The notes under the pieces were generated by a model, which saw only the letters and a list, made by a program, of their open reading frames with translations, had not been told where the DNA came from and did not search any database. DNA of 64,000 nucleotides, from positions 53,243 to 117,242 of the forward strand of contig JAUNKV010000004.1 of NCBI GenBank assembly GCA_030532575.1, given 5' to 3'. The position numbers and the translations under genes were made by a program. This document shows positions 4,535 to 64,000 of this stretch, piece after piece (the first letter of the stretch is position 1; every line of letters starts with the position of its first letter). This stretch comes from Propionibacteriaceae bacterium. Its GTDB lineage: Bacteria; Actinomycetota; Actinomycetes; Propionibacteriales; Propionibacteriaceae.

Positions 4535-5446
4535 TCAGAACAGCACCGTGGACAGCCGACGGCGCGCCTTCAGCACCTCGGGGGCGCTGCGACCCACGAT
4601 CTCGAACAGCTCCAGCAGCCGCACCCGGATGGTCTCCTTGTCCTCCGGGCCCACCTCCGCGGCGAGCCCGAGCAGCCGGTCGAAGGCGGCTTCATTCGCC
4701 CCCTGGATGACCTCCAGGTCCGCGGCATCCAGTTGCGCTGCGATGTCATCGGGACGCTCCTTGGCGGCACTCACCACTGCAGCCCCGTCGAAGTTCACCG
4801 AGCGGGCCAACAGCGCCGCCTGGGCACGCCCGGCGATCACCTCGGGATCCCCGGGGGTGGCCGCCAGCAGCGCGTCGAACTCCTCGACCGCCTGGGCGTA
4901 GTCCCCCGCTGCCAGGGCTGCATCGGCCTTGTCGAAACGGGGATCAGCCTGGGGAGCCTGCTCCTGAGCACTCGGCGCCATCCCGATGGGCTGGGCCCGG
5001 CCGGTCAGCCCGTTGGCCACCGCGACCTGGGCCACCTGGTCCAGCATCGCAGCGATCTCGGCACGCTCCCGGGTGCCCTGGAACAAGGGGGCCAACTGCC
5101 CGCCGATCAGGGCAACCACCGTCGGCACGGCCGCGATTCCCAGCGCCTCGGCCAGGCGGGGCTCCGCATCGATGTTGACCCGGGCCAGCAGGAAACGACC
5201 ATCGGCGGCGTTGACCACCTCGGCCAGGGCCTGGCCAACACCTTGGCCAGCCACGTCCTTGGCGGAGTGGAACTCCACGATCACCGGATGCTGCATGGAC
5301 AGCCCCAGCAGCTGCTGGAACCCGGCCTCGGTGACATCGGTGACATAGGTCGCGGTGGCGCCCCCGGGAGCCGCCGCAGCGGTGGCCTTCGAGGCGAGCG
5401 CGGACAGGTCGACGGCACCGGGACGTGAGAAGTTCGGGTCACTCAT
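4535..5446 (-). CDS. Thioredoxin-domain protein with TPR-like C-terminal region (YbbN/CnoX-like co-chaperone)
   Basis: Thioredoxin fold N-terminus with an Ala-rich TPR-like C-terminus. Start at 5446 ('MSDPNFSRPG'); the upstream extension was rejected. Confidence 0.65.
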   Translation of the reverse strand: MSDPNFSRPGAVDLSALASKATAAAAPGGATATYVTDVTEAGFQQLLGLSMQHPVIVEFHSAKDVAGQGVGQALAEVVNAADGRFLLARVNIDAEPRLAEALGIAAVPTVVALIGGQLAPLFQGTRERAEIAAMLDQVAQVAVANGLTGRAQPIGMAPSAQEQAPQADPRFDKADAALAAGDYAQAVEEFDALLAATPGDPEVIAGRAQAALLARSVNFDGAAVVSAAKERPDDIAAQLDAADLEVIQGANEAAFDRLLGLAAEVGPEDKETIRVRLLELFEIVGRSAPEVLKARRRLSTVLF

Positions 5447-38949: not shown

Positions 38950-40401
38950 TCACACCTCCGCGGGCAGCACCAGGCGCGCCCTGGTCCCCACTCCCGACTC
39001 CACCGACTCGATCTCCAGGGTGCCACCCAGGTCCCCCACCAGCGTGGAGATGATGGCCAGCCCCAGACTTTTCTGGTTGCCGAGCTGAAAATCCTCCGGC
39101 AGACCCACACCGTCGTCGATCACATCGACGAAGAGGTGCTGGTCGTCGCGGTGCGGATGAACCACGAGCCGACCCGACCCGCTGTTCAAACCGTGCTCGA
39201 TGGCGTTCTGGCACAGCTCCGTGATGATCATGCCCAACGAGGTGGCTGCCTCGGCACGCACTTCCCCGAAGGTGCCCTCTCGGCTGGCCTCGACGGTACC
39301 GTTGGTGGCGGCGAGGTCACCCACCATCTGCAGGATGCGGTCACACACCGCATCGAAGGCGATGTCATCGGTGATGCTGTGACTCAGCGTGTCGTGCACC
39401 AACGCAATGGACGAAACCCGACGCATCGCATCGGTCAGGGCCTCACGCCCCTCCTCCGAGCCCAGCCGCCTGGACTGCATCCGGAGCAGGGCGGCGACGG
39501 TCTGCAGGTTGTTCTTGACCCGATGGTGGATCTCCCGGATGGTGGCGTCCTTGGTGACCAGCATCCGGTCCCTGGAGCGAAGGTCAGTGGTGTCGCGGCA
39601 CAGCACCAGCGATCCCCGACGTTCGCTCTGCACCACCAGGGGCAGCACCACAAGCCGCATCGAGGCCCTGGGCTGCTCCACGTCGAACACGACGCTGCGC
39701 TGCTCCGCCAGGTCGGACTGGACCGTCTGCCCCACCGATTCCACATTCTTCATCACGCTGCGGATCAGCACCGGGAAGTCCTCGTCCGCGACATCGCCGA
39801 GCGCACCGAGCCGCCTGAAGGCGGTGATCGCGTTGGGCGAGGCGTAGCTGATCCGGCCGCTCGGCTGCACCCGGAGCACACCGTCGCACACCCGGGGGGC
39901 CAACGCCTTGTCACTGACCGGGGCCAGTGGGAAGCGTCCCTCGAGGATCATCGAGGTGAGCATGTCGGCAGCCTCCAGGTAGTTCTCCTCCAGCGCCCCG
40001 TTCGCCCGCATCCCCATCTGGTTGGTGTGCCGCTCCAGCACCGCGATGCATCGGCCCCGCCGGATGATCGGCACCGCCCACACATCGACCGGAATCCCGG
40101 CCGAGAGGGCGTTGTCGCTGGTCTCGCAGATCTCGTGGCTGAGAAAGGCCACCAGCACCTGGTGCTCCAGCTCGTAGGAGATGCGCTCCCCGATGACATC
40201 ATCCTCCAGTGCCGTCGGTCCGGTGACGGGGCGGATCTGGGCCACGCAGGTGAACTCCTGGCAGTCCTCGGAGTCGTCATCGGGCACCCACAGCAGCAGG
40301 TCGGAGAAGGAGAGATCGCTCAGCAGGTGCCACTGGCCCTGGAAGGCGAGAAGCCACTCGGCATCTGTCAACTGATCGACGGCGGACATCACCATGGGCA
40401 T
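38950..40401 (-). CDS. pdtaS: Cytoplasmic sensor histidine kinase, PdtaS-like (GAF-PAS-HisKA_2-HATPase)
   Basis: 'IHHRVKNNLQTVAALL' H-box and 'GVGLP' G-box with no TM segments. Synteny with whiB1 as in M. tuberculosis Rv3219/Rv3220c. Confidence 0.8.
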   Translation of the reverse strand: MPMVMSAVDQLTDAEWLLAFQGQWHLLSDLSFSDLLLWVPDDDSEDCQEFTCVAQIRPVTGPTALEDDVIGERISYELEHQVLVAFLSHEICETSDNALSAGIPVDVWAVPIIRRGRCIAVLERHTNQMGMRANGALEENYLEAADMLTSMILEGRFPLAPVSDKALAPRVCDGVLRVQPSGRISYASPNAITAFRRLGALGDVADEDFPVLIRSVMKNVESVGQTVQSDLAEQRSVVFDVEQPRASMRLVVLPLVVQSERRGSLVLCRDTTDLRSRDRMLVTKDATIREIHHRVKNNLQTVAALLRMQSRRLGSEEGREALTDAMRRVSSIALVHDTLSHSITDDIAFDAVCDRILQMVGDLAATNGTVEASREGTFGEVRAEAATSLGMIITELCQNAIEHGLNSGSGRLVVHPHRDDQHLFVDVIDDGVGLPEDFQLGNQKSLGLAIISTLVGDLGGTLEIESVESGVGTRARLVLPAEV

Positions 40402-40481
40402 ACTCTGCCATCACGGGAGCTGGTGGCGCCACGAGGGTTCTGGCACAATGGGCCGTCGCATCGCAAGAGAAGGAGACCCTG

Positions 40482-40556
40482 ATGGGCAAGACCGGTCGCA
40501 AGCGTCGCGCTCGCCGCAAGAACAAGGCCAACCACGGCAAGCGTCCCAACGCCTGA
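40482..40556 (+). CDS. 24-aa Arg/Lys-rich peptide, candidate ribosomal protein bL37-like micro-ORF
   Basis: 'MGKTGRKRRARRKNKANHGKRPNA'. Strong AAGGAGA RBS 7 nt upstream and a GC-rich hairpin terminator directly downstream. Not in the ORF track because it is shorter than 60 aa. Confidence 0.55.
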   Translation: MGKTGRKRRARRKNKANHGKRPNA

Positions 40557-40562
40557 ACGCCA

Positions 40563-40595
40563 GGACGCCCCCGCCCTGACCGGGCGGGGGCGTCC
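40563..40595. terminator. GC-rich stem-loop terminator (14-bp stem) after the micro-ORF; convergent with rshA
   Basis: 'ggacgcccccgccc' - tgacc - 'gggcgggggcgtcc' followed by a T-containing tract 'ttcgtcttcgg'. Confidence 0.55.
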
Positions 40596-40612
40596 TTCGT
40601 CTTCGGCGATCC

Positions 40613-40879
40613 TCACTGGCCGAGGCAGAAGGCCGTGAGTCGATGCCTCAGCTCGGCCGGGGCCCGGGTGGCGGGTTGGCTGCGCTGGATCATCACCGTG
40701 ATGGTCTGCTCGATCTCGAAGCTCTCCATGCAGCGTTCACAGGCATGCAGGTGATGGCGCACCAGGTCGGCCTCGGACTCGGGGAGTTCGCCGTGCAGGA
40801 AGGCGTGCACCGCTTCCAGGGCGCGCACGCACTCGTCCATCTCGTCGTGGTCATGACTCCACATGGCGGGGTCGCTCAT
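40613..40879 (-). CDS. rshA: Anti-sigma factor RshA/RsrA (ZAS family, redox-sensing)
   Basis: 'HLHACERC' is the HxxxCxxC ZAS motif plus additional Cys. Start overlaps the sigH stop (ATGA). The long N-terminal extension in the ORF track was rejected. Confidence 0.8.
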
Positions 40880-41529
40880 CGGGACCTCCCGATGCCGCGC
40901 TGTGCCGCGTACTCCGCCAGTGCGGTGCGCAGCTGGGAACGTCCCCGGTTGAGCCGGGACATCACCGTACCGACGGGGGTGTCCATGATGGCCGCGATCT
41001 CCTTGTAGCTGAATCCCTCGACGTCGGCGAGGTAGACCGCCAGACGGTAGTTCTCCGGCAGCGCCGCCATCGCATCGGCGACGGCCTGGTCCGGGGTGTT
41101 GTCGAGTGCCTCCATCTCGGCGGAGCGCAGCCCCTGCGAGTCGTGGGAGGCGGCCTTTGCCAACTGCCAGTCGGTGACCTCCTCGTCCCCGCTGAGTTTC
41201 GGGGAACGCTCGGCCTTGCGCCATGTGCTGATGTGGGCGTTGGTGAGGATCCGGTAGAGCCAGGCCTTCATGTTGGTGCCGTCCTTGAACGACTCCCTAC
41301 CTTTGAGCGCCTTGGCGTAGGTCTCCTGCACCAGGTCCTCGGCATCGGCTGGGTTTCCGGTCATCCTGAGGGCAGCGGAATAGAGGCGGTCGAGGTGGCT
41401 GAGCGCCTCCTGCTCGAACGCCAGGCCCAGTTCGGCTGCGTCGATCTCCACTGAAGAATCCATCGGGGAAGAAACTACCGCCTCCGGGGTTCTGGCTGTG
41501 CGAGCGTCCAGCATCAGGGTTGCGGTCAT
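40876..41529 (-). CDS. sigH: ECF sigma factor SigH/SigR
   Basis: Region 2 '[11 protein letters not shown]...WLYRILTN' and region 4 '[25 protein letters not shown]'. Start 41529 is supported by a SigH-type promoter immediately upstream. An alternative ATG at 41463 exists. Confidence 0.85.
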
Positions 41530-51413: not shown

Positions 51414-51791
<378 letters not shown>

Positions 51792-51906
51792 GATGCAATC
51801 TTAGGCACTTAAGGGCACCTGATGCAAGATGATGTCACCTAAGGCCACCCACGCAACCTAGGGACATCCTTGACGACAAGGTGACGCTAGGCGTAAGTTT
51901 GACGCC

Positions 51907-52185
51907 GTGGACTTGCAAGACACGTCACTTCCATTACCTAACCGGCCCTTCTGGTCACCTGCCGAAGTTGCCGAGCTTCTCCCCGACACGGAGAAGCGCA
52001 CGGTCGCGCGGTGGTGCAAGGAGGGAAGAGTCCCCGGGGCGAAACGTGCCGTGAACGGACGTTGGCTCATTCCGGCCACCTGGGTTCATGAGCTGCTGGC
52101 CAGCGAGAGCGCGGAGCCTTCCGACCCAGCGGCTGCCGAGTCGCCTCCCCCAGATGATCCGCTGCCTGGGTTGGAGGAGCCGTGA
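51907..52185 (+). CDS. xis: Excisionase-family DNA-binding protein (MerR-like HTH, Xis)
   Basis: 'WSPAEVAELL...RTVARWCKEGRVPGAKRAVNGRWLIP' matches the excisionase-family HTH pattern. Confidence 0.55.
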   Translation: MDLQDTSLPLPNRPFWSPAEVAELLPDTEKRTVARWCKEGRVPGAKRAVNGRWLIPATWVHELLASESAEPSDPAAAESPPPDDPLPGLEEP

Positions 52186-53465
52186 GTATCTGGGCTGTGT
52201 CGTGGGCGCTACGTGTGCGGGGGTTGTCGCGGACGGACAAGTTGACGTTGGTGGCGTTGGCTGATTACGCGGATGATGAGGATGAGGCGTGGCCGCGTGT
52301 GGAGACGTTGGCTGAGGTGTTGGATGCGTCGCAGCGGACGGTGTTCAGGGCGTTGGAGGCGTTGGAGTCTGCGGGGTTGATTTCGCGGATGCAGGGGTTC
52401 GTGAAGACGGCTGGGGGTGGTGTGCGGCAGGTGAATTCGGTGTATCGGTTGCATGTGCCGGACACGGTGTCCAGGCGTGTGGGTCGGGGGGCGTCGAGGC
52501 CTCAGGAGGTGCGCGAGAGTTCGGGCTTCGGTGGTGTTGCCACGCTCGAGGTCGCGGGTGAAACCCCTTGTGGAGTCCGCCATGACACTGGTGTCACCCC
52601 GGACGGCTCGGTTGGTGAAATGCCTTGTCAGGTCCGCCATGACATGGGTGTCACCCCGGAATTTCGGGGTGACACTGGTGACAGTTCCGGGGTGACACCC
52701 ATGTCACCCCTATATAAGGAAGAACCATCAGTAGAACCACCAAGCCAAGCCCCCCTACCCCCCACACCGCCACCGGGGTTGGGGTCGGGTGGCTTGGCTG
52801 GGCTGGGCGGGGTGGTCTCCGCGACCGACGACGACGGGGCTCCCCTGGTCCTGGTGGTTGGCTCTGGGCCGGAGCAGGCTCCGGCCGGGCCGCCCTCCAC
52901 GGTGTCGTCGAGCTCGGGCTCCGGTCCGGGTGCTGACCCTGGGCCTGGGCCTGGCAGCGGGTCTTCGGTGTCGTCGGAGGCGTGGGGGTTGGTGCGGCGG
53001 TGCCTGCCCGAGGGGATGCAGGCGTTGGATGGGCCGGGGCTGGAGCTGGTGCTGCCGCTGTTGCGGGAGCGTTTGGAGGCTGGGTGGCGGCCCGAGGCAC
53101 TACGGGATGTCCTGGCGGCTGATCCGTTGCCGGAGCGGGTGCGGCATTTGGCGGGGTTGGTGGCGCATCGGGTGGGTCGGGTGCCGGTGGATGCGGCTCC
53201 TCCTCCGCCGCGGCCGCGGGGGTCATGGCGGGTGCCTGATCCGCCGTCGGTGCCGTTGAGGCCGGAGGAGGTCAATCCGGTGGTGGTGCGGGCTGAGGCC
53301 GCGCGCCGGGAGGCGATCCGGGTCGGGTCGCCGGATGCGGCGCGGCCGCGGTCGTGGTGGCTGCGGCGGGCGATAGATGAGGTTTCGGCTGGCGAGGAGT
53401 CGCTGGTCGGGATGGACGGGTCTGGTGCCCGTGATGTGCAGCAGGGGCAGGAGTCGCTGCGGTGA
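52182..53465 (+). CDS. Rep-like winged-helix/HTH protein with low-complexity linker (possible replication/transfer initiator of the element)
   Basis: N-terminal 'LSRTDKLTLVALADYADDEDEAWPRVETLAEVLDASQRTVFRALEALESAGLISR' wHTH. The ORF may really be two genes split at the iteron region (alternative ATG at 52698). Confidence 0.45.
   Translation: MSIWAVSWALRVRGLSRTDKLTLVALADYADDEDEAWPRVETLAEVLDASQRTVFRALEALESAGLISRMQGFVKTAGGGVRQVNSVYRLHVPDTVSRRVGRGASRPQEVRESSGFGGVATLEVAGETPCGVRHDTGVTPDGSVGEMPCQVRHDMGVTPEFRGDTGDSSGVTPMSPLYKEEPSVEPPSQAPLPPTPPPGLGSGGLAGLGGVVSATDDDGAPLVLVVGSGPEQAPAGPPSTVSSSSGSGPGADPGPGPGSGSSVSSEAWGLVRRCLPEGMQALDGPGLELVLPLLRERLEAGWRPEALRDVLAADPLPERVRHLAGLVAHRVGRVPVDAAPPPPRPRGSWRVPDPPSVPLRPEEVNPVVVRAEAARREAIRVGSPDAARPRSWWLRRAIDEVSAGEESLVGMDGSGARDVQQGQESLR
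52565..52717. repeat. Iteron-like direct repeats (about 58-bp period) plus inverted GGGGTGACAC/GTGTCACCCC palindromes ending in an AT-rich TATATAA block
   Basis: 'ccttgtggagtccgccatgacactggtgtcaccccgga' (52565-52602) and 'ccttgtcaggtccgccatgacatgggtgtcaccccgga' (52623-52660). Then 'ggggtgacactggtgacagttccggggtgacacccatgtcacccctatataa'. Confidence 0.6.
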
Positions 53466-53523
53466 TGGTTTTGTTTGTTGCCTCCTCACTGTGTGGGGTG
53501 GGTGCCTTGGAAAGGGGCTTGTG

Positions 53524-53739
53524 ATGCAGTTCGATACGTCGATGTTGAACACGCTGATGGATCTGGTGGGTGGCATGTTGGCGGCCCTCGCAGCCATTAT
53601 GGGTGGCTGGGCAGTGGCGGTGCTCGCGATGAATCTCATCGGTGAACGGGATGGTGCGGCGATGAAGAACGCGTTGAACTGGGCCGCTGCCGCTGGGTTG
53701 CTGGGAGCGCTCGGCGGGTTCTTCATCGCCATGTTCTGA
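53524..53739 (+). CDS. Small (71 aa) two-TM membrane protein of the conjugation module
   Basis: 'MQFDTSMLNTLMDLVGGMLAALAAIMGGWAVAVLAMNLIG...' with GGAAAGGGG RBS. Confidence 0.45.
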   Translation: MQFDTSMLNTLMDLVGGMLAALAAIMGGWAVAVLAMNLIGERDGAAMKNALNWAAAAGLLGALGGFFIAMF

Positions 53740-53751
53740 AGGGGGTGAGTC

Positions 53752-54627
53752 ATGGCGGGGCCTGTTGTGTTGTCGTGGGCAACCGAGATTTTGGAGCCGA
53801 TCCTGAACAGTTTGGCTGATGGCAAGATTTTCGGGTTGGATGTGAAGTTCGTGCTCACTGATCCCTCGACGGAGAATCCTGAAGTGTGGGCGTTGGTCAG
53901 CCAGGTTTCGGCGGCGTTGATCTCTTCGGTGGCGGCTGTAATGTGCGTTATCATGTGCTCGATTGATTTGCAGCGGGTTACCTTGATGACCGACGGGGAA
54001 GGCGAGACCAAGACGAAGGCGATTGTTTTCACCGTGGTGAAGTTCGGGGTGGTGTGGGCGATTTTCCACCAGGCCCCGGGGATACTTTTCGATATCTGGA
54101 AGATGGGGAATGAGATCGCGACAAAGGTTTCCGAGCAGCTGGCCCCAGGGACGGGCACCTATGATTTGGATGAGCAGCGACAGGTGTTCCTGGATAGCGT
54201 GAAGGATCTTGATTGGTTGGGGCAGACGCTGCTGGTTGTGCTGATGTTGATTGCTTGGCTGGTGAACAAAGGGGCTGTGCTGGGGTGTGTTGCTGTGGCG
54301 GTGGTGCGGTTGATGAAGATTTATTTGTTCACCGCTTGGTGTCCGGTTCCGATGGCGTTGTTGGCGTCGGAGCATGGCCGTTCGTTCGGGATTGGTTTTT
54401 TGCGGAACTACTCGAAGACCATTTTGCAGGCTTTCGTGCTGTTGTTGTCGTTCGGGATTTACGGACTCCTTTCATCGAAGTGGGCGGACAAGATCATGGA
54501 GATGGACATGTCTCAGGGTGTGGAGGCTGCACTGCAAATCGGTGCGGTCTACATTTTCATGGGTATCGTGTTGTGCATGATCGTGATGGGGTCAGAGAAG
54601 CTGGCCTCGGAACTGGTTGGAGGATGA
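53752..54627 (+). CDS. Polytopic conjugal transfer membrane protein (TrbL/VirB6-like candidate)
   Basis: 291 aa with 5-6 TM helices, placed ahead of the VirB4 ATPase in a T4SS gene cluster. Confidence 0.5.
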   Translation: MAGPVVLSWATEILEPILNSLADGKIFGLDVKFVLTDPSTENPEVWALVSQVSAALISSVAAVMCVIMCSIDLQRVTLMTDGEGETKTKAIVFTVVKFGVVWAIFHQAPGILFDIWKMGNEIATKVSEQLAPGTGTYDLDEQRQVFLDSVKDLDWLGQTLLVVLMLIAWLVNKGAVLGCVAVAVVRLMKIYLFTAWCPVPMALLASEHGRSFGIGFLRNYSKTILQAFVLLLSFGIYGLLSSKWADKIMEMDMSQGVEAALQIGAVYIFMGIVLCMIVMGSEKLASELVGG

Positions 54628-54628
54628 C

Positions 54629-55309
54629 ATGAGGAAACTGCTGGTGACTACGGTGTTCGCGGCCTTGGTCGTCGTCGGGGCGGTGGGGTGTGGCCAGTCG
54701 GTGGATGAGGCCCGTGCGGAGGCTGCTGCTCGTGTGGCCCAGATGCTGTACCTGGAGGACTTGGAGGCGGTGCAGGCTGGGCTGGAGGACGCCGCCACGG
54801 TGGAGGAGGTCCGCAAGCTGGCCGAGAAGGCCGAGAAGGAGGATCAGGAGCGTGGAGAGGCGTACTGGAGCTGCGCTGCGAAGGCTGTGCAGGCCCTGCC
54901 GGGTACCGCGTGGGAGGCTGATGCATGGCATGATGATGGGAGCTGGGATGTTGTGGTGCTTCACCTGAAGGTTGACGCCACCGCCACGTTGGAGCGCACA
55001 GCTTCTCACCTTCCATTTGGCTCGAGTTCAAGCCCGACCGCGCCACCGAGCGAGATGGACACGTGGCTGTCAGAAAATGCAGAGAAAGTTTCGGGCTGGA
55101 GTAGTGATGTCGCGGATCGGGTGGCGTCGCGGAGTGTGTTGGATGGCCAGCCTCCTCATTTCTCGGTGGTGAACAAGTCCTGCACGGTTCAGTTCATGCT
55201 GACGCTGGTCACTGCCACTGGGGCGGTACAGTTCCCTGCGAAGCTGGAAATCCACGCTCATCTCAATCTGGTTGTCAATGGCAAGGACACGTCCAGGAAG
55301 GAGGGATGA
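54629..55309 (+). CDS. Lipoprotein of the conjugation module
   Basis: Signal peptide with lipobox 'AVGCGQ'. Glu/Ala-rich mature part. Confidence 0.55.
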   Translation: MRKLLVTTVFAALVVVGAVGCGQSVDEARAEAAARVAQMLYLEDLEAVQAGLEDAATVEEVRKLAEKAEKEDQERGEAYWSCAAKAVQALPGTAWEADAWHDDGSWDVVVLHLKVDATATLERTASHLPFGSSSSPTAPPSEMDTWLSENAEKVSGWSSDVADRVASRSVLDGQPPHFSVVNKSCTVQFMLTLVTATGAVQFPAKLEIHAHLNLVVNGKDTSRKEG

Positions 55310-55313
55310 GGGG

Positions 55314-55712
55314 ATGGCGCTGGAGGTTCGGGTCCATTCGGAGGTGACCGACATCGATGCCAAGGTGGTTGGGCCGTTGACGTGGCGGCAGTTCGTTTTC
55401 ACCTTGGTGGGGGTTCCGGTCCTTCTCGGGTTGGGGACGGTGTTGTTCTTCTTGGGGAGGTTGCCTGTTTTGCCGTATGTGGTGACTCCGTTGTTGGCGC
55501 CGTTGGCGTTGTGGGCGTGGGCGAAGCCGATGGGGATGAGGTTTGAGAAGTGGGTGCCGTATGCGTGGCGGGCCGTGTGGGAGCCTCGCGTGTTGCGGTA
55601 TGGGAATGATCCTGTTTCGCTGGGCCAGGTGAAGAGTTTTGATGATGCACATGCTGGGAGGAAGAATGTTTCTCGGAAAGAAGCGGGAAAGCGACCCGAG
55701 GCCGGATGGTGA
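55314..55712 (+). CDS. TcpE/PrgI-like small membrane protein of Gram-positive T4SS
   Basis: Two central TM helices ('FVFTLVGVPVLLGLGTVLFFLG', 'VVTPLLAPLALWAWA'). ATG 4 nt after the lipoprotein stop. Confidence 0.45.
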   Translation: MALEVRVHSEVTDIDAKVVGPLTWRQFVFTLVGVPVLLGLGTVLFFLGRLPVLPYVVTPLLAPLALWAWAKPMGMRFEKWVPYAWRAVWEPRVLRYGNDPVSLGQVKSFDDAHAGRKNVSRKEAGKRPEAGW

Positions 55713-58068
55713 CATCCCTGGCGGGAGGCATGGGAAGAAGAGGGGGCGGGAGTCCAGGCGACAGCGCACGGCGCGGGATGTCTTGTGGTATGAGTCGCTG
55801 CTGGAGTCGGGGATTTGCGTGCTCGGCGGCGGCCTGTATTCGGTCATGCTGAGGTTGGCGGACATCAACTATCACATGGGCGGCGAGACGCACCAGCGTG
55901 GAGTGCTGGAGAATTACGCGCGGTTCTTCAACAAGCTTGGTGTTGGTGAAGAGGTGACGGTGATGATCGCGAATCGCCGGATTGATCGCCAGGACCTGGT
56001 GGGAAGGGTGCTTTTTCCTGAGCCTCGTGATGGGGACGATTTGACGGTATGGCGGGCTGACCACAATCGGGTGGTGGAGGCGATGCTGGGTGACCGGGAC
56101 TACATGATCGTGTCGGAGAAGTACCTGCTGTTGACCGTGTCGGCTGAGGATGTGGAGGAGGCGACGGCCCGGCTGGAGCGGTTGGAGGCCAGCGTGATCT
56201 CGGATCTGTTGCAGCTGTTGAGCTGCCGGGCTGAGCGTCTGAATGGGGTCGCCCGGGTGGAGTTCCTGCGGGAGTGGACCCGGGGCGTGTATGCGAAGGG
56301 CTTCGATTTTGAGGCGCTGGGGTTGTCCGGTGCATCGACGAAGGATGAGCTGGCGCCCCAGGGTGTTGATCGGCGGAGCAAGTCACGGATGGTGCTGCAC
56401 GGTGACACCGAGGAGCTTCACTTCCAAACCCTCGTGTTGCGGAACTATCCGGCGTATCTCACCGATGATCTGTTTGCCCGGATCAGTGAGATCTCTGCGG
56501 ATCTGGTGATCTCGTTCAACATCGAGCCGCTTGATCGTGCCATGGCGATGAAGTTGGTGGGGAGCCGGATCGGGGATCTGAAGATGGAACGCACCGGTGC
56601 CAGGCGTCGGGCGATCAACGCGAAGCTGGACCCGAATGTCGATCTGCCGGAACGGTTGGTGGAGGGGTTGGATGAGACTGCGGAGTTGCGGGATGCGATG
56701 CGGCGTGAGGGCCAGCGGTTGTTCTCCACGACGTTGCTGGTCGCTGTGCGGGGGTCGTCGCGGGAGGAGTTGGCGGAGCGGGTTCGGTTGGTGATCCGCG
56801 CCGCGAGTGGTGAGCAGTGCCAGATGTCGGGGATGTGGGGGTTCCAGGAGGCTGGGCTGAACCAGGTGCTGTTTGGTGGGCATCGGGTCCCGGTGAGGCG
56901 GACCCTGACCACGGCCGGAGTGGCGACACAGGTGCCGTTCGCGTCGCAGGAGATTCTCGATCCTGAGGGCGTGTTCTACGGCCTCAACGGCCGGACCGGG
57001 AACCCGATCGTGGTGGACCGCCGTCGCAAACGCAACGGCAACAAGTTCACCGTCGGCACCTCTGGGTCGGGCAAGTCCCATCTGGAGAAGTGGGAAATCT
57101 GCGAGGTCCTGATCGGGAACCCGAGTGATGAGCTCATCATCATCGACCCGGAGCAGGAGTACCGGGCCCTGGGTGAGGCGTGGGGGGCCACCATCGTGGA
57201 GGTTCACGCCGCGTCTGAGCAGACCATCAATCCGTTCGATGTGGAGATGGTGAATCTGGAGGGCAGGCCGTTGCGGTTGAAGACCGAGGCGGTGCTGGGG
57301 ATGCTGGAGGTCCTACTGGGCGGTGATGCCGGTCTGAGTGGGGAGGCCCGCTCCGTGCTGGATCGCTGCGTCAGTAACCTCTACAACCGGTGGGAGCAGA
57401 CCCAGTCGTCGGTGATGCCCACCTTCGTGGACCTGTGGCACGAGCTCCGCCAACAGCCCGAGCCCGCCGCGGCCACGGCCGCGATGAAACTGGAGCTCTA
57501 CTCCGTGGGATCGTTCTCCGGGTTCGCGCAACAGACCAACGTCGATGTGAGCAACCGGTTCGTGATCTACGACACCTCCAAGCTCGGCCACGCCTTGCAG
57601 AACTTCGGGTTGATGGTGGTGCTGGATTCGATCTGGCAGCGGGTCCAGCGGAACTACGGGCGTGGTATCCGATCTTGGTTGTGGGTCGATGAGTTCGCGT
57701 CGATGTTCACCAACCGGCACGCGATGAACCAGTTCATGGAGTTCTTCCAACGCTTCCGTAAGTATGGCGGGATGGCCAGCGGCATTTTGCAGTCGGTGAC
57801 CCGACTGCTGGAGGTCGAGGAAGCGGTCCAGATGCTCAACAACGCCGAAATCCTGGTGCTGATGGGCCAATCCGATGCCGACGCCAAGGCGTTGGAAGAG
57901 TTGCTGGGCCTGTCTGATCAGGAGGTGCGGGCTTTCAGGGCGGTGGAGCCGGGCTGTGGTCTGATCCGGGTTGGCTCGACCTCGTTCCCCCTCAATGCCA
58001 GGAAACCGCAGGACGGGGTCCTTGCGGCGCTGTTCGACACCTCGTTCAAGGATGGTGGTCGTGGCTGA
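55666..58068 (+). CDS. VirB4-family conjugal transfer ATPase (TcpF/ConE-like)
   Basis: Walker A 'GTSGSGKS' and Walker B 'LIIIDPEQE', 800 aa. GGGAGGA RBS before ATG 55666. Confidence 0.9.
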   Translation: MFLGKKRESDPRPDGDIPGGRHGKKRGRESRRQRTARDVLWYESLLESGICVLGGGLYSVMLRLADINYHMGGETHQRGVLENYARFFNKLGVGEEVTVMIANRRIDRQDLVGRVLFPEPRDGDDLTVWRADHNRVVEAMLGDRDYMIVSEKYLLLTVSAEDVEEATARLERLEASVISDLLQLLSCRAERLNGVARVEFLREWTRGVYAKGFDFEALGLSGASTKDELAPQGVDRRSKSRMVLHGDTEELHFQTLVLRNYPAYLTDDLFARISEISADLVISFNIEPLDRAMAMKLVGSRIGDLKMERTGARRRAINAKLDPNVDLPERLVEGLDETAELRDAMRREGQRLFSTTLLVAVRGSSREELAERVRLVIRAASGEQCQMSGMWGFQEAGLNQVLFGGHRVPVRRTLTTAGVATQVPFASQEILDPEGVFYGLNGRTGNPIVVDRRRKRNGNKFTVGTSGSGKSHLEKWEICEVLIGNPSDELIIIDPEQEYRALGEAWGATIVEVHAASEQTINPFDVEMVNLEGRPLRLKTEAVLGMLEVLLGGDAGLSGEARSVLDRCVSNLYNRWEQTQSSVMPTFVDLWHELRQQPEPAAATAAMKLELYSVGSFSGFAQQTNVDVSNRFVIYDTSKLGHALQNFGLMVVLDSIWQRVQRNYGRGIRSWLWVDEFASMFTNRHAMNQFMEFFQRFRKYGGMASGILQSVTRLLEVEEAVQMLNNAEILVLMGQSDADAKALEELLGLSDQEVRAFRAVEPGCGLIRVGSTSFPLNARKPQDGVLAALFDTSFKDGGRG

Positions 58069-60004
58069 TGATCGTCCCCGCAGGTGGCGGGACATTCGTG
58101 TGGTGTCCCGGGCGGGGTGGCGTCACAACGGTCTGGAAGCCGCCCGGCCCCGATACGGTGGCACGATCACCACCACGACGAAAACCGTGAATGGGAAGAC
58201 CGAAACCTGGGTGTCTGAGACCCTCTCCACCAGGCAGCAGATCACCTCAGCGGTCAGGCAGGCGGGTCATGTCGCCTGGACCCAAAGCGTCTCTGGTGCT
58301 GCGACGGTGGGACGAGTCGGTGCCCGCACCACCAGCCGGGCGGCCCGCACCGTCAGGGCCCAGCTGCGGAAGCTCGAAGCAGCCGGAGAGCTGGACGTCG
58401 ATGCCCAGCTCTCCATGGCGGGCCGTGCTGCGGCCCGCACCACCGGACGAGCCACCAAAAGGGTCGCTGCCGGGGTGGGACGTCAGGTCCTGAAGAAGAT
58501 CGGGATCGAGAAGAAACCCCACTCTGGGTTGACTGGCAGTGTTCGTCGGGCAGGGTCCGGGTTGATGCACCAGGTCCGTGGCGGGGTGGGCCTGATGGCT
58601 GATGGCGGCCAACTCGACGTGGACCGTGCCGCGGCGCGGATGACGCAGCGGGCATGGAACAAGTCCGTGGGAGTCACCGGCCGAGCTGCCGCCCGCGGAG
58701 CGAGGGTCACCACACGGTGGGCGGCACGACACACCGGGAAAGCCACCCGGTGGGTCGCGGCACGAACAGCCGCGCTCGCTGTGAAAGCCGGAATGGCCGT
58801 GGCCCACCTCATCGGAGCACTCGCCGGAGCCGTCGGGACAATTCTGCCGGTCCTGCTGATCGTCATCGGCATCGTGGCCGTGCTGTGCGCCATCCTGCCC
58901 TCATTCATCACCGGCGCCGGGGCCGAGAACCAACGTCGCGAGGAGGCTGCACGCCGGTCACAGTTGACGTCGTGCAGTGGCCCTGGAGTGGTCTCAGCTG
59001 CGGATGTTGCGGTGTTTCTGCCGTCACCGCGCGGCACCGACATCTCCGGTTCGTTGTCCGAGGAGCAGCGAGCGACGGCGACGGCGATTGTGGAGGAGGG
59101 ACAGAAAGCAGGTATCCCTCCCAGGGGGTGGGCGGTGGCGTTGATGACTGCGATGCAGGAGTCCACGATGGGCGCCAACCCCGCCACGAAGCAGCCAAAT
59201 GGGGACGGGGATGTGGGGGTGTTCCAGCAAAGAGCAAAACTCGGCTGGTATGCCGATGGGGCAACAATGGCTGAGAACACCAGGATTTTGAATGATGTCC
59301 GCTACGCTGCAAAAACGTTCTTTCTGGGTCACAAGGTTGGCGTTTTCTCGCCATCTGGGGCTGGAAGTCTTGGTTATCAGATCCCTGGCTTGGTCAACAT
59401 TTCCGGGTGGGAGTCGATGGACTTGGGGAAGGCCGCCCAGAAAGTCCAGGTGAGCGCCTTCCCCGACTATTACGCCAAGCACGAGGCCACCGTCGCTAGC
59501 CTTTTGCCGACGCTGAACCCTCAGGGCTGCTCTCAGGTGGATCTGTTGGTGCCAGGGGCCAGCGGTCTGGCGGGCAAGGACGACTACGCGGGCTGGTATG
59601 CGAAGCTCCCAGACATGGTCAAGGCGGAAGGATACGACCCGAATGGGTTCGCGTGGCGGCAGTGCACGTCATATGCGGGGTTCGCGGTCAGGACGTATTC
59701 CCGGCACAAGGATTTCAATAATTGGTGGCGGCAGGACGGGGGCCGGTTCAGCGACGCGAAGCATTGGCATGTGGCAGCGCGCAAGGCCGGGATTCGGGTG
59801 GATCAGACCCCAGCAGTGGGGGCGGTTGCGCAACGCACCTCGGGAGACTGGGGACATGTTGCTTACGTCGTCGCAGTCAATGACGACGGCAGCTTTGTCA
59901 TCAACGAATACAATCACGTCACCACTCGGGAGTTCTCTTCCAGGACGGCCCGGATCGGGAATGGGTCGCATGATTTCACCAACTTCCTGCATTTCGAGGA
60001 GTAA
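58052..60004 (+). CDS. Conjugation-associated peptidoglycan hydrolase: Arg/Ala/Thr-repeat N-terminus, TM helix, lytic transglycosylase-like domain and C-terminal CHAP domain (TcpG/VirB1-like)
   Basis: 'MQESTMGANP...GVFQQR' matches the SLT-like motif. 'CTSYAGFAV...GHVAYV' gives the CHAP Cys/His pair. Confidence 0.8.
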   Translation: MVVVADDRPRRWRDIRVVSRAGWRHNGLEAARPRYGGTITTTTKTVNGKTETWVSETLSTRQQITSAVRQAGHVAWTQSVSGAATVGRVGARTTSRAARTVRAQLRKLEAAGELDVDAQLSMAGRAAARTTGRATKRVAAGVGRQVLKKIGIEKKPHSGLTGSVRRAGSGLMHQVRGGVGLMADGGQLDVDRAAARMTQRAWNKSVGVTGRAAARGARVTTRWAARHTGKATRWVAARTAALAVKAGMAVAHLIGALAGAVGTILPVLLIVIGIVAVLCAILPSFITGAGAENQRREEAARRSQLTSCSGPGVVSAADVAVFLPSPRGTDISGSLSEEQRATATAIVEEGQKAGIPPRGWAVALMTAMQESTMGANPATKQPNGDGDVGVFQQRAKLGWYADGATMAENTRILNDVRYAAKTFFLGHKVGVFSPSGAGSLGYQIPGLVNISGWESMDLGKAAQKVQVSAFPDYYAKHEATVASLLPTLNPQGCSQVDLLVPGASGLAGKDDYAGWYAKLPDMVKAEGYDPNGFAWRQCTSYAGFAVRTYSRHKDFNNWWRQDGGRFSDAKHWHVAARKAGIRVDQTPAVGAVAQRTSGDWGHVAYVVAVNDDGSFVINEYNHVTTREFSSRTARIGNGSHDFTNFLHFEE

Positions 60005-60008
60005 CGAG

Positions 60009-60596
60009 ATGGATCGTCGTACAGCCCTGGGCTTGATTGCAGCTAGTGTGTTGCTGGCTGGGTGCGGGAGCCCGGGCGTGGGTGAGGCACCAGCGCCCAC
60101 CCCTGATGTGGCGGCGTCGGTGCAGGTGTCGAGGGGTGTCGAGGCGAGCGTGGTGCCGTCGTGGGTGGGGTCGGGGCCTGCTCGGCGTGCGGCCGAGTTC
60201 GTGAGGGTCGCGGCAACAGCGGATACCCGGGTGGATGAGGTACCGGAGGGGGCGTGGCGGCGCGCAAAGTCGATGATGACCCCGGCCCTGGTGGCAGACC
60301 TTGAGGCTGGTTCTGCTCTGGGCCAGGTGGCGGGGTGGGGGCGGCTGCAGCGCCTCGACGGCTGGGTTTCTGTCGAGTTCGGGAATGTGTTGGGTGATGA
60401 ACCGCAGGCAGCACCAGGGCCGGAGGACTCCCCCACCCCGAAGGATGGGGTGGAGATTGAGGTGGTGTTCACCCGCACCATTCATGCTGAGGGGCAGCGT
60501 GACGTGCGGGAGTCGGAGCCGTTGGTGTGGGTGGTGCGGGTGGTGGGTGATCAGGTGGCGGGGGTGTCGACGGTGACCACCACGAACCCGGGATGA
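60009..60596 (+). CDS. Lipoprotein of the conjugation module
   Basis: Lipobox 'LLAGCGS'. ATG at 60009 immediately after the hydrolase stop. Confidence 0.55.
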   Translation: MDRRTALGLIAASVLLAGCGSPGVGEAPAPTPDVAASVQVSRGVEASVVPSWVGSGPARRAAEFVRVAATADTRVDEVPEGAWRRAKSMMTPALVADLEAGSALGQVAGWGRLQRLDGWVSVEFGNVLGDEPQAAPGPEDSPTPKDGVEIEVVFTRTIHAEGQRDVRESEPLVWVVRVVGDQVAGVSTVTTTNPG

Positions 60597-60669
60597 GCGA
60601 GTTGTCCACAGACGGCAGATTTTCTGGACCTGGTGAGCATGTCGGGCTGGAGGGTGCACATGGTGATAG

Positions 60670-61002
60670 GTGAAGGAGAAACCACTCGTGAAAGGGAGTG
60701 CAGGGATGAAGGATGTGTGGCGGGTCTGGGCGCTGGTGACCTGGGCTGCGAACGTGCTGGGCAGTGAGGAGTTGGGGGACGTGGGCCTCCAGCTGGTGGG
60801 GCTGCCACTGGGGGTGCTGCAGTTCGCTCCGGCCGGGGAGGCCCCGGTGGTGGTGCCAGTCTTTGATGGTGTGTCGGGGCGGGAGGCTGTGGCGGAAGCG
60901 CTGGGGATCGTCACGTCGTGGGAGCTGACCACGATGGAGGCGCAGGAGTTCTTCTTCGACTTGGTGGATGTCCATGATGCCTTGACCAGTCGGGGGCTGT
61001 GA
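60670..61002 (+). CDS. Hypothetical protein (element-encoded)
   Basis: ORF with GTGATG overlap to the next gene. No recognisable motif. Confidence 0.3.
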   Translation: MKEKPLVKGSAGMKDVWRVWALVTWAANVLGSEELGDVGLQLVGLPLGVLQFAPAGEAPVVVPVFDGVSGREAVAEALGIVTSWELTTMEAQEFFFDLVDVHDALTSRGL

Positions 61003-61814
61003 TGGGGTGGCGTGAGATCACCGAGCAGGCGCATCAGCGTCTGGTCACCGGGGAAGGGCTGGAGTTCGAGCAGTGGCGTGGAGTGATGGCTGCTGTCGGC
61101 CCAGTGGCTGGTGAGGATGCGGCGGTTGCGTCGGCGGTTCAGATGGCGGCTGGGGCTGCTCTTGTCGCGGGGGTTCAGGCGCGTCCCGCTGATCGCCTGG
61201 TTGCTGAGACGGTCGCGGCCGCCGGGTCGGGGTGGGATGGGCAGGCTCGGCTGGCGGTGACGGCGATGACGCATTTGGCGTTGCGGTCCGCGCGTGGGGA
61301 TCGTGAGGAGCAGGTCCTGGCGGCGGTGGAGCGTGAGCTGTTGCCGCATCGGGAGCCGTCTGCCTTGGTGGTGGCGTTGCGGGATTGGCGGGACCAGGTT
61401 GCCGCCACGGGTGTGGGGCCGCATGAGGCGGTGAACATCGCGGCGGTGCAGGCGCGGCTTCTGGTGGAGGCCCGCGGCTGGATCGGCCAGGTGGAGGCTC
61501 CTGCTGGTGTCGAGCTCGCAGGGCTTCAGGACGCGGTCACGGTGGCGGCTGAGGTGTGGCAGGTCGCTGCGTCGTCGTGGCGTGATGTCACCAGGCGGGA
61601 ACAGCAGAGCCCGGCTGCGGTGGCGGAGTTGTCACGGCGGTGGGTGGCTGTTGCTCAGGCGGTGCGGGCGGAGCCGTCGGTGGCTCGTCGGGTGGAGGCG
61701 ATGATCGCAACCGGTTTTTGGGGGGTGTGTGCAGGCTGGGTTGTCGGTGCGGGCGCCGGGGGATGCCGACACTGTGTTGACGCAGGTTGGGGTGGGGGTG
61801 GAGATCGCCGCTGA
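61002..61814 (+). CDS. Hypothetical Ala-rich protein with C-terminal hydrophobic/Gly-rich tail (possible sigma-factor partner)
   Basis: Coupled start. Lies directly upstream of the element sigma factor. Confidence 0.35.
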   Translation: MGWREITEQAHQRLVTGEGLEFEQWRGVMAAVGPVAGEDAAVASAVQMAAGAALVAGVQARPADRLVAETVAAAGSGWDGQARLAVTAMTHLALRSARGDREEQVLAAVERELLPHREPSALVVALRDWRDQVAATGVGPHEAVNIAAVQARLLVEARGWIGQVEAPAGVELAGLQDAVTVAAEVWQVAASSWRDVTRREQQSPAAVAELSRRWVAVAQAVRAEPSVARRVEAMIATGFWGVCAGWVVGAGAGGCRHCVDAGWGGGGDRR

Positions 61815-61974
61815 TCCGCTGCACGGCCTGACCTTCCAGGACCGCACCCCACCACGTCTGCGGCAGCCCACCCCCACGGGGGTGGGTCACTCCCCCACCC
61901 AGCAGACGCCGCCACAAGATCCGGCGGCGGGGGTGGTGTCTGTGTGGCGTGGTGGGGTGGAGAGTGACCCGGAG

Positions 61975-62907
61975 ATGGAGAACACTCATGCCACGCATGT
62001 GGCTGCTGCTCGGATGATGCAGGCGGGAGTTGTTGCGCAGGCCGCGTTGGATGGCCGCCCGGAGGCGGTTCGAGCGGCTGCGGGGGTTCCTCGGCAGCGG
62101 TTGGAGGAGCTGGTGGAGCGGGGACGGCTGGGGAAGGCCCAGCTGATCGCTTTCACCCGCCCGATGGTGGTCGCGGCGTTGCGGGAGGACTTGGCGCGAC
62201 GTCGTGGCCCGGCTGGGGATGATCTGTTGTCGGCGGCGCAAACCCATGTCGCGGAGCAGATCACCACCTGGGATGAGACCCGGGGCCGGTTGGCCGGGTG
62301 GGTGTGGCAGGTCGCACGCCAGGAGGCGGGGCGGTGGGTGACCCGCGGCCGTACCTCGGAGCAGGCCCTGAAACGTCACGAAACCTTGAGCGAGTCTGTG
62401 GAGGACCACGCTCACACAGCGGCGCTTGACTCTCCCACCTTGGGTGTGGAGGAGCAGGTGATGCAGGCCTGGAGTGTCCAGGAGCTTCGCCAGCGCATCA
62501 CGCAGCTGGACCCGACTGTTCGGGATGTGGTCACGGCCCGGTTTGGCCTGGCCACCGGGGAGGTGGAGACCCGCGCCTCCATCGGGAACCGCCTGGGCCT
62601 GTCAGTTACGACGGTCCAGCGGATCGAGGCCCGGGCGGTGCAGGAGCTGCGGCAGGTGCAGCGCACCGAGATCGACCAGTCCCTCCCCGGCCTGTCAGCG
62701 CGGTTGCGTGATGCTGTTCCTCGCGAGCTGGTGGCCCGCCTGGGCCGGGAGCAGAAGCAGCGTGCAGCAGTCAATGAGCCACGGCCGTTGATCGACCGAA
62801 TCAAGGAGCGGGCAGAAGCGGCCCGGAATGAGTCGCAGCTGAGTCGCTGGATGACAGCGCAGCAACCAGACAGGAACAGGGATCGAGAGGAAGGACCAGA
62901 ACGATGA
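61975..62907 (+). CDS. Sigma-70-family RNA polymerase sigma factor encoded by the element
   Basis: Region 4 HTH 'ETRASIGNRLGLSVTTVQRIEARAVQELRQ' and a region-2-like segment upstream. GGAG RBS before ATG 61975. Confidence 0.6.
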   Translation: MENTHATHVAAARMMQAGVVAQAALDGRPEAVRAAAGVPRQRLEELVERGRLGKAQLIAFTRPMVVAALREDLARRRGPAGDDLLSAAQTHVAEQITTWDETRGRLAGWVWQVARQEAGRWVTRGRTSEQALKRHETLSESVEDHAHTAALDSPTLGVEEQVMQAWSVQELRQRITQLDPTVRDVVTARFGLATGEVETRASIGNRLGLSVTTVQRIEARAVQELRQVQRTEIDQSLPGLSARLRDAVPRELVARLGREQKQRAAVNEPRPLIDRIKERAEAARNESQLSRWMTAQQPDRNRDREEGPER

Positions 62908-62940
62908 CCACACAGACGAGCTGGGGAGGGGGTGGCGCTG

Positions 62941-63099
62941 ATGACTGCGATGCAGATGGTCTTGGCTGTGGTGTTGCTGTTGGTGGCGGTGCGGGTGGCC
63001 GGGCTGGTACTGGCCCTGCTCGCGGAGCTGCGCCGCTGGGTCCTGGGAGCCATCGGGTTGATCCTGGCGGCCGCCCTGGTCGCGGAACTCCTCACCTAG
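62941..63099 (+). CDS. 52-aa hydrophobic (2-TM) peptide
   Basis: 'MTAMQMVLAVVLLLVAVRVAGLVLALLAELRRWVLGAIGLILAAALVAELLT'. Preferred over the overlapping Gly-rich frame-0 ORF 62904..63110. Confidence 0.4.
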   Translation: MTAMQMVLAVVLLLVAVRVAGLVLALLAELRRWVLGAIGLILAAALVAELLT

Positions 63100-63109
63100 G
63101 AGGTCTGTG

Positions 63110-64000
63110 ATGAAGAAGGGGATCGTGGTGTTCGCGGGCATCGTTGCCGCGCTGGTGGCGTATGCCGCAAACGTGATCTCGGCGGGGTTGCGGGTGGGCG
63201 CTGAGCCGTCGGTGTCGTGGGTGGTGCGTCTGCCGGATGCGGCCCGTCGGGTGGTGACGTGGCCACCATCGTGGTCGTGGGAGCCTCGCGACCTGGTGAT
63301 CGCGGCCGGGGCTGCCGTGTTTACTGGATTGCTGATCGCCGCCTGGGCCGTGACCCAGCCTCAGCGCTCCGGCGAGGAACACGGCTCCGCCCGCTGGGGC
63401 AAGCCCCGCGATCTGAAACCGTTTATGGACCCGGACATCGAGAAGAACGTGTGGTTGACCAGGGAGCACCGGCTCCGCATCACCCGCGCCCGGAAGCCAG
63501 AGCATCAGCGCAACCTCAACATCTTGTGTATCGGCGGCTCCGGCGCGGGCAAGTCCCGGTTCTTTGTGATGCCGAATCTGGCGCGTGGTCTGTCGTCGGT
63601 GGTGGTGACGGATCCGAAGGGTGAGCTGCTGCGGGAGTGCCGTCCTGGGTTGGAGCAGGCCGGGTTCCAGGTGCGAGTGCTGAACCTCATCGACTTCAGC
63701 AAGTCCGACGGCTTCAACCCGCTGGCATATCTGCGCCCTGGGCATGAGCCGGAAGATGTCGCGCTGTTGGTGCGCACGATCATTGCGAACACCAGCGCAC
63801 CGGGGCAGAAACCTTCGGGCGGTGACCCGTTCTGGGAACGAGCTGAAGCCGCAGTGCTGAACGCGCTGATCGCATTCGTCGCCGCCACCGCCCCACCAGA
63901 GAAGCAGAACCTGGGCGAGGTGATGGACCTGCTGTCGCAGATGCAGGCCAGCAAGGACGACGCCCTCTCCCCCGTCGATGAGCTGTTCCTCCAGGCCGGT
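63110..64000 (+). CDS. Type IV coupling protein (TraG/VirD4/TcpA family), 3'-truncated at window edge
   Basis: AGGAGG RBS, ATG 63110, N-terminal TM helices, Walker A 'CIGGSGAGKSRFFVMPNL' and 'VVVTDPKGEL'. Absent from the ORF track because no stop occurs before the window end. Confidence 0.85.
   Translation, partial: MKKGIVVFAGIVAALVAYAANVISAGLRVGAEPSVSWVVRLPDAARRVVTWPPSWSWEPRDLVIAAGAAVFTGLLIAAWAVTQPQRSGEEHGSARWGKPRDLKPFMDPDIEKNVWLTREHRLRITRARKPEHQRNLNILCIGGSGAGKSRFFVMPNLARGLSSVVVTDPKGELLRECRPGLEQAGFQVRVLNLIDFSKSDGFNPLAYLRPGHEPEDVALLVRTIIANTSAPGQKPSGGDPFWERAEAAVLNALIAFVAATAPPEKQNLGEVMDLLSQMQASKDDALSPVDELFLQAG

Follow-up and report, generated by a model that had tools for sequence, protein, structure and literature searches.

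A 24-codon gene, almost certainly for the ribosomal protein bL37, between pdtaS and rshA-sigH in a Propionibacteriaceae genome

Genomic context

The window, i.e., the whole 64-kb stretch of DNA that was analyzed, contains a short open reading frame (ORF) at positions 40482 to 40556 of the plus strand (ATG, 23 further codons, and TGA), which translates to MGKTGRKRRARRKNKANHGKRPNA. As the initial annotation had recognized, it is preceded by a Shine-Dalgarno (SD) sequence, AAGGAGA (40470 to 40476), and followed by a hairpin. The GGAG core is separated from the ATG by 6 nt, and the hairpin together with a T-containing tail occupies 40562 to 40606. Its divergent neighbor is pdtaS (38950 to 40395, minus strand), encoding a sensor histidine kinase, and it converges on rshA (40613 to 40879, minus strand) and sigH (40876 to approximately 41463, minus strand). 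Further out are whiB, on the pdtaS side, and a DoxX gene and aroA, on the sigH side. No rRNA genes were found within the 64-kb window.

The names given to these neighbors in the initial annotation agree with domain, NCBIfam, and PDB matches. PdtaS carries the Pfam domains GAF_PdtaS (130 bits), HisKA_2, and HATPase_c and matches the Mycobacterium tuberculosis PdtaS structure 2ykf with an E value of 3.5e-40. RshA is a zf-HC2 anti-sigma factor that scores 56.1 bits with the RsrA model TIGR03988, just under the cutoff of 62.5, and SigH scores 294.7 bits with the SigH_actino model TIGR02947 (cutoff, 251.55). In the annotation of relatives, the corresponding proteins are a PdtaS of 481 amino acids (aa), with a start equivalent to window position 40395, an RshA of 91 aa, and a SigH of 195 aa. 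Searches for exact-sequence matches to the window PdtaS (as 483 and 481 aa) and RshA (88 aa) returned none.

The ATG of rshA (MSDPAMW...) overlaps the stop codon of sigH (40876 to 40879), and the 91-aa RshA of relatives likewise has a 4-nt overlap, an arrangement that fits translational coupling of the sigma and anti-sigma factor genes. Upstream of pdtaS, the minus strand reads TGG-CAGAGT (40407 to 40402), then ATGCCC, and then the ATG (40395), which places an extended -10-like box 6 nt before the start codon; this block is kept in four relatives (L038 and L041 to L043) and suggests that the pdtaS mRNA is leaderless.

Synteny was assessed by tblastn of the neighboring window proteins against the 37 listed loci of relatives. 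bL37 stands next to rshA-sigH in at least 20 loci, and in most of those outside Streptomyces, and SigH, often with RshA, is encoded immediately downstream and convergently in Propionibacteriales, Corynebacterium, Demequina, Cellulomonas, Isoptericola, and several metagenome-assembled genomes (MAGs). The order whiB-pdtaS-bL37-rshA-sigH-doxX-aroA is kept in full in Propionibacteriaceae. In three loci (L005 [Propioniciclava sinopodophylli], L027, and L036) bL37 alone is inverted and is codirectional with sigH-rshA. No sigH was found within 4 kb of bL37 in 11 Streptomyces loci or in the Acidimicrobiia loci. In L013 to L023 and other Streptomyces loci bL37 is unlinked to sigH/sigR; in Streptomyces kurssanovii (L023) the gene is flanked by genes for an SRPBCC-like protein, a DUF779 protein, and an aldehyde dehydrogenase. 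Mycobacteria presumably have one or more extra genes between pdtaS and rshA. The bL37 gene of Mycobacterium smegmatis is MSMEG_1916 (PMC10081302) and its sigH is MSMEG_1914 (PMC7033543, PMC11656743), and since the two are only two locus tags apart, the neighborhood seen in the window, which is shared by Propionibacteriales, Corynebacterium, and Micrococcales, extends to mycobacteria.

Elsewhere in the window, the composition shifts directly after a tRNA-Met(cat) gene (51414 to 51490): the GC skew rises to between +0.1 and +0.3, and GC content falls to 0.59 at 54 to 56 kb. Domain matches on the plus strand beyond this point comprise an HTH_36 ORF (52182 to 53465), a TrbL/VirB6 ORF (53752 to 54627), a TraG/VirB4-like P-loop ATPase ORF (55639 to 58068), a CHAP-domain hydrolase ORF (57971 to 60004), and an ORF for a sigma70_r4 protein (61729 to 62907). 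The region from 51414 to 64000 is probably an integrative conjugative element at the tRNA gene, with its far end beyond the window.

Identity of the 24-codon ORF

Likeness to bL37 had been proposed from the composition and C-terminal tail of the peptide, and database comparison bears it out. The ORF at 40482 to 40556 is almost certainly a real bL37 gene (rpmK-like), encoding a tiny large-subunit ribosomal protein of Actinobacteria, because three independent lines of evidence agree: an equivalog model, PDB chains, and an exact match in RefSeq. First, the peptide matches NCBIfam model NF047428.1 (ribo_Myco_bL37), a curated equivalog for the actinobacterial-type bL37 with a cutoff of 30 bits, at 46.8 bits (E value, 2.3e-12) over positions 1 to 24 of 24. 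Second, among all PDB chain sequences, only bL37 chains match the peptide. Chain V of the Cutibacterium acnes ribosome (8crx) is identical at 22 of 24 residues (E value, 1e-8), and the chains from M. smegmatis (5o60_3) and M. tuberculosis (7kgb_v) are identical at 16 to 17 of 24, each without gaps from residue 1 to residue 24. Third, the identical 24-aa sequence is RefSeq WP_390620223.1, [quoted passage not shown] found on 13 contigs.

The peptide has the features of the family, i.e., approximately 24 residues, a basic N-terminal segment, and a C-terminal ANHGKRPN(A/S) loop, and 15 columns are invariant across it and the structure-modeled bL37 chains, including G5, R6, K7, R9, R11, and A16 to N23. 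A local Pfam-A scan of the peptide gave no match even at an E value of ≤10. The identical 24-aa product of a close relative (L039, positions 5293 to 5367) is assigned PF26427 (HR_L37) in a precomputed table, and the discrepancy stems either from a difference in library version or from the way in which filters act on very short sequences of biased composition.

The closest characterized homologue is the bL37 of C. acnes (FB41_0958; Lomakin et al. 2023, PMC10085706), from the same family, Propionibacteriaceae, which has the same length and the same pattern of a helix plus an ANHGKRPNA loop. The two peptides differ only at residues 14 and 15, which are KG in C. acnes and NK in the window and which form the two most variable columns of the family. 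The bL37 proteins of M. smegmatis (MSMEG_1916, UniProt A0QTP4; 5o60 and 5xym) and M. tuberculosis (7kgb) also have 24 aa, but the N-terminal half of the mycobacterial protein differs (MAKRGRKKRDRKHS versus MGKTGRKRRARRKN). The planctomycete bL37 (NF047429) is likewise a short basic peptide and occupies the same pocket of 23S rRNA H39 to H42, H89, and 5S rRNA (PMC10618245), but the window peptide scores only 12.3 bits with that model, against a cutoff of 40 bits (E value, 0.16). Borreliella fills this pocket with an N-terminal extension of its uL30, an element that is fused rather than encoded by a separate gene (PMC10618245). bS22 (MSMEG_0945) resembles bL37 in being tiny, very basic, often unannotated, and discovered in the same structures (PMC10085706, PMC10081302). 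Unlike bL37, it has 33 aa, lies in the 30S subunit near h44/h45, and is unrelated in sequence; the window peptide matches bL37 models only.

Predicted ribosomal role

[quoted passage not shown] H39, H40, H72, H89, and the H41/H42 junction form this pocket, and the N terminus of bL37 touches the H89 backbone. The location proposed for the window protein is taken from this orthologue literature. By analogy, the peptide would consist of an N-terminal helix of approximately 13 residues and a C-terminal ANHGKRPNA loop and would neutralize phosphate charge and buttress H89. The proposed role of bL37 would be structural stabilization and charge neutralization, with possible effects on drugs that bind nearby. 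Its functional importance is unproven: precise deletion of bL37 in M. smegmatis gave no growth, biofilm, transcriptome sequencing (RNA-seq), ribosome profiling (Ribo-seq), or antibiotic phenotype (preprint PMC10081302).

That a knockout had no translation phenotype would also fit a peptide whose main role is extraribosomal, i.e., a cationic antimicrobial or one resembling a bacteriocin, and for which ribosome binding is secondary. In addition, synthetic C. acnes bL37 (92% identical to the window peptide) inhibits Staphylococcus epidermidis and Staphylococcus aureus in disk assays (PMC10085706). However, the peptide is stoichiometrically buried in rRNA in all actinobacterial structures examined and is kept in free-living soil and marine actinobacteria whatever the niche, and no signal peptide, leader, or adjacent export or immunity genes were found in the window. 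Polycationic peptides are often antimicrobial in a nonspecific manner, and staphylococcal inhibition by synthetic bL37 is regarded as such a generic polycation property. A primarily extraribosomal function is therefore considered very improbable.

Conservation of the reading frame

Relatives were collected by a degenerate-pattern scan, with one genome per species, which gave at least 37 confirmed loci, including loci from Propionibacteriales, Streptomyces, Corynebacterium, Demequina, Cellulomonas, Isoptericola, Actinomyces, and Acidimicrobiia. The scan motifs were ANHGKRPN and M[GA]K[TR]GRK[RK]R, so that invariance at those residues arises partly by construction, while the signals from length, start, stop, and third codon positions are independent of motif selection. 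Thirty-five distinct DNA sequences, the window included, were compared, and these encode 25 distinct peptides.

All 35 have an ATG start and exactly 24 codons, with TGA as the stop codon in 34 and TAG in 1. Positional entropy at codon positions 1, 2, and 3 is 0.45, 0.41, and 0.90, respectively, i.e., third positions are approximately twice as variable as the first two, and synonymous codons occur at invariant residues (CGC, CGT, and CGG at R11 and R21 and four codons at A16). The median pairwise dN/dS ratio is 0.33. The reading frame in the relatives appears to be under purifying selection at the protein level. Codon usage in the 35 sequences is almost exclusively AAG, AAC, CAC, GGC/GGT, and CGC/CGT, a bias that is typical of highly expressed genes.

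Variants of 27 to 28 aa, ending in ...KRPN(A/M)GR(R/G), were seen in three loci of Acidimicrobiia and related MAGs (L033, L034, and L037). These lack both an SD sequence and a downstream hairpin and have a TANNNT hexamer 8 to 10 nt before the ATG, and their bL37 transcripts may be leaderless. Likewise, a further locus, in Streptomyces boninensis (L030), lacks an SD sequence, and the hexamer TATTCT lies 6 nt upstream of its ATG.

These comparisons bear on whether the ORF could have arisen by chance in a G+C-rich spacer in which only the hairpin is functional, as a terminator of the rshA-sigH operon. DNA of high G+C content yields many spurious ORFs rich in Arg, most relatives have no stop codon in any of the six frames across the 72 nt, and the hairpin is equally stable on the minus strand, 16 nt past the rshA stop codon. 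Yet among all start-to-stop ORFs of 15 to 60 aa on both strands of the window (approximately 67% G+C; n = 1,784), the only one with ≥40% Lys plus Arg and a 5-mer SD match at -16 to -4 is the bL37 ORF. The start, length, and stop are invariant across orders while third positions vary, and the ORF is kept in Streptomyces, where sigH is not nearby. The initial annotation had taken conservation of the frame, rather than of the hairpin only, as the deciding comparison; it is the frame that is conserved across Actinomycetota, and the hairpin sequence is the least conserved part (against close relative L038, 63% identity in the spacer after bL37 versus 100% in the ORF). A spurious ORF is effectively refuted by the equivalog match, by the presence of the same peptide in ribosome structures, and by this conservation of the frame across orders.

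Expression signals

A putative extended -10 element, TGGCACAAT, was located by phylogenetic footprinting at 40441 to 40449 of the plus strand, with the TG at 40441 to 40442 and the hexamer CACAAT at 40444 to 40449. Among six Propionibacteriaceae loci with diverged flanks, CTGGCA[C/G]AATG is the sole invariant upstream block. In Streptomyces and Corynebacterium loci, TAGACT or TAGAGT stands at a distance of approximately 45 nt, and hexamers of the GACACT or GAGACT type occur in other lineages; overall, these -10-like hexamers lie 30 to 75 nt upstream of the ORF. A scan for consensus sigma-70 promoters from 40100 to 40900 called nothing, and the 10-mer frequency of the -10 block within the window is not significant alone. 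We infer from the footprint that the bL37 unit has its own promoter at 40441 to 40449, with a predicted transcription start at approximately 40455 to 40457, a 5' untranslated region (UTR) of approximately 25 nt, and a transcript of approximately 150 nt.

Membership of bL37 in the SigH regulon was rejected because no SigH/SigR-type promoter (GGAAT-N16-19-GTT) is present upstream of the gene in the window. Among the 37 loci listed, this pattern gave only three matches, which are scattered and at inconsistent distances.

An SD sequence of the AGGAG or GGAGG type precedes the ORF in most of the 37 loci listed, and the centroid fold computed for the predicted transcript leaves that of the window unpaired. 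The hairpin begins 5 nt past the bL37 stop codon. The initial annotation described it as a 14-bp GC stem-loop; the hairpin is real, but the stem (arms 40562 to 40576 and 40582 to 40596, loop 40577 to 40581) has 15 perfect pairs, of which 14 are G-C and 1 is A-U. With its flanks, the plus strand folds at -46.8 kcal/mol (z = -6.4), and none of 200 dinucleotide shuffles was as stable; the minus strand gives -49 kcal/mol (z = -6.35). A weak T tract, TCGTCTTCGG, follows the stem, a T-containing tail is present on the plus strand only, and a simple terminator scan also flags the hairpin. It is probably the intrinsic terminator of bL37, and it may terminate the convergent rshA-sigH transcript as well, since it folds equally on the minus strand just past the rshA stop codon. 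A terminator-like match on the minus strand (40493 to 40475) has a weak stem of 7 bp and corresponds to the reverse-complemented SD region; it was treated as a chance match.

When the 70 nt after the stop codon were folded and compared with dinucleotide shuffles, a 3' hairpin (z < -2) was found in 28 of 38 loci (median z, -3.2), and the hairpin sequences are mutually unrelated. Even between the window and L038, both arms have changed while pairing is kept (GGACGCCCCCGCCC/GGGCGGGGGCGTCC versus GACGCCCCGTCCC/GGGACGGGGCGTC). The unit of ribosome binding site, ORF, and hairpin, whose presence in relatives the initial annotation had proposed to check, is conserved as an architecture and not as a sequence.

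The layout of a short ORF followed after 5 nt by a strong terminator hairpin resembles an attenuator, in which translation of a leader peptide would control the hairpin and thereby a downstream gene, but gene order contradicts this reading, as rshA-sigH lies on the opposite strand and converges on the hairpin so that no gene is left to regulate, the peptide sequence is conserved, unlike typical leader peptides, and no antiterminator pairing stands out, and we give it practically no weight. In the predicted transcript as a whole (z = -1.97), no regulatory structure was found besides the terminator, which is all that the centroid contains. The unit looks like a small monocistronic gene, and the SD sequence, the conserved -10-like box, and the hairpin predict that bL37 is expressed and translated. 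Most likely, the gene would be transcribed from its own promoter into a very short, monocistronic message that ends at the hairpin, and translation would start from the strong SD sequence.

Nucleotide-level conservation

With an exact-match WhiB as a handle, six contigs of close relatives were recovered, the DNA of which is 82 to 88% identical to that of the window; the nearest DNA found is 87 to 88% identical. All six contain the bL37 ORF, identical at 75 of 75 positions in five and at 72 of 75 in one. Between the window and L038, identity is 87.4% over 7.1 kb, and whiB has 90% DNA identity despite an identical protein. The longest exact run in this comparison is 313 nt (40244 to 40556). It takes in ~150 nt from the 5' end of pdtaS, the entire spacer, and the entire bL37 ORF and ends exactly at the bL37 stop codon.

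In the relatives compared, identity between the -10 box and the stop codon consistently exceeds that of the background. Over 40441 to 40556, identity is 116/116 in L043 (background, ~87%), 110/116 in L041 (82%), 104/115 in L003 (~78%), and 92/116 in L011 (~67%). The pdtaS part of the 313-nt run is specific to the lineage of L038 and L042 and probably stems from recombination. L043 shares only a shorter identical stretch, at approximately 40427 to 40556. The run as a whole likely combines a recombination tract with a bL37 unit that is itself under strong constraint.

Much of the excess DNA identity would be explained by strong codon bias, to which a constrained promoter and leader would add. 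A unit of promoter, 5' UTR, and ORF (40441 to 40556) that is constrained beyond coding, with a second, RNA-level role for the bL37 mRNA or locus, could follow from the excess identity combined with the widely conserved convergent layout, in which bL37 and rshA-sigH face each other across one hairpin. Candidate roles could be translational self-feedback or an interplay of convergent transcription with the SigH stress operon. We regard such a second role as unlikely.

Annotation and significance

bL37 has been known since the mycobacterial ribosome structures of 2017, and the exact protein of the window is already named in RefSeq. The initial annotation considered the ORF unannotated and easily missed. 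The latter holds among close relatives: three records span the spacer, of which one has a call for the 24-aa gene (L039, GCA_003859805.1) and two leave the identical ORF uncalled (L038, GCA_030532695.1, and the Logan assembly L040). The former does not hold in general, given the RefSeq entry, the call in L039, and the NCBI equivalog model that now exists. The minimum gene length of Prodigal is 90 nt, and a gene of 75 nt falls below common gene finder limits, which fits the absence of a call in two of three close relatives with an identical ORF. The C. acnes bL37 was likewise entered as "hypothetical protein FB41_0958" (PMC10085706), and the copy in M. tuberculosis H37Rv is unannotated (PMC10081302).

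The conservation of promoter, UTR, and ORF at the nucleotide level above that of their surroundings is the only mildly unexpected point. The position of bL37 near the PTC and H89, close to the oxazolidinone and orthosomycin sites, makes it relevant to species-specific structural work on antibiotics, tempered by the one published knockout, which had no phenotype. The value of the finding lies in annotation quality, bL37 being an ordinary ribosomal protein apart from the ease with which gene finders miss it.
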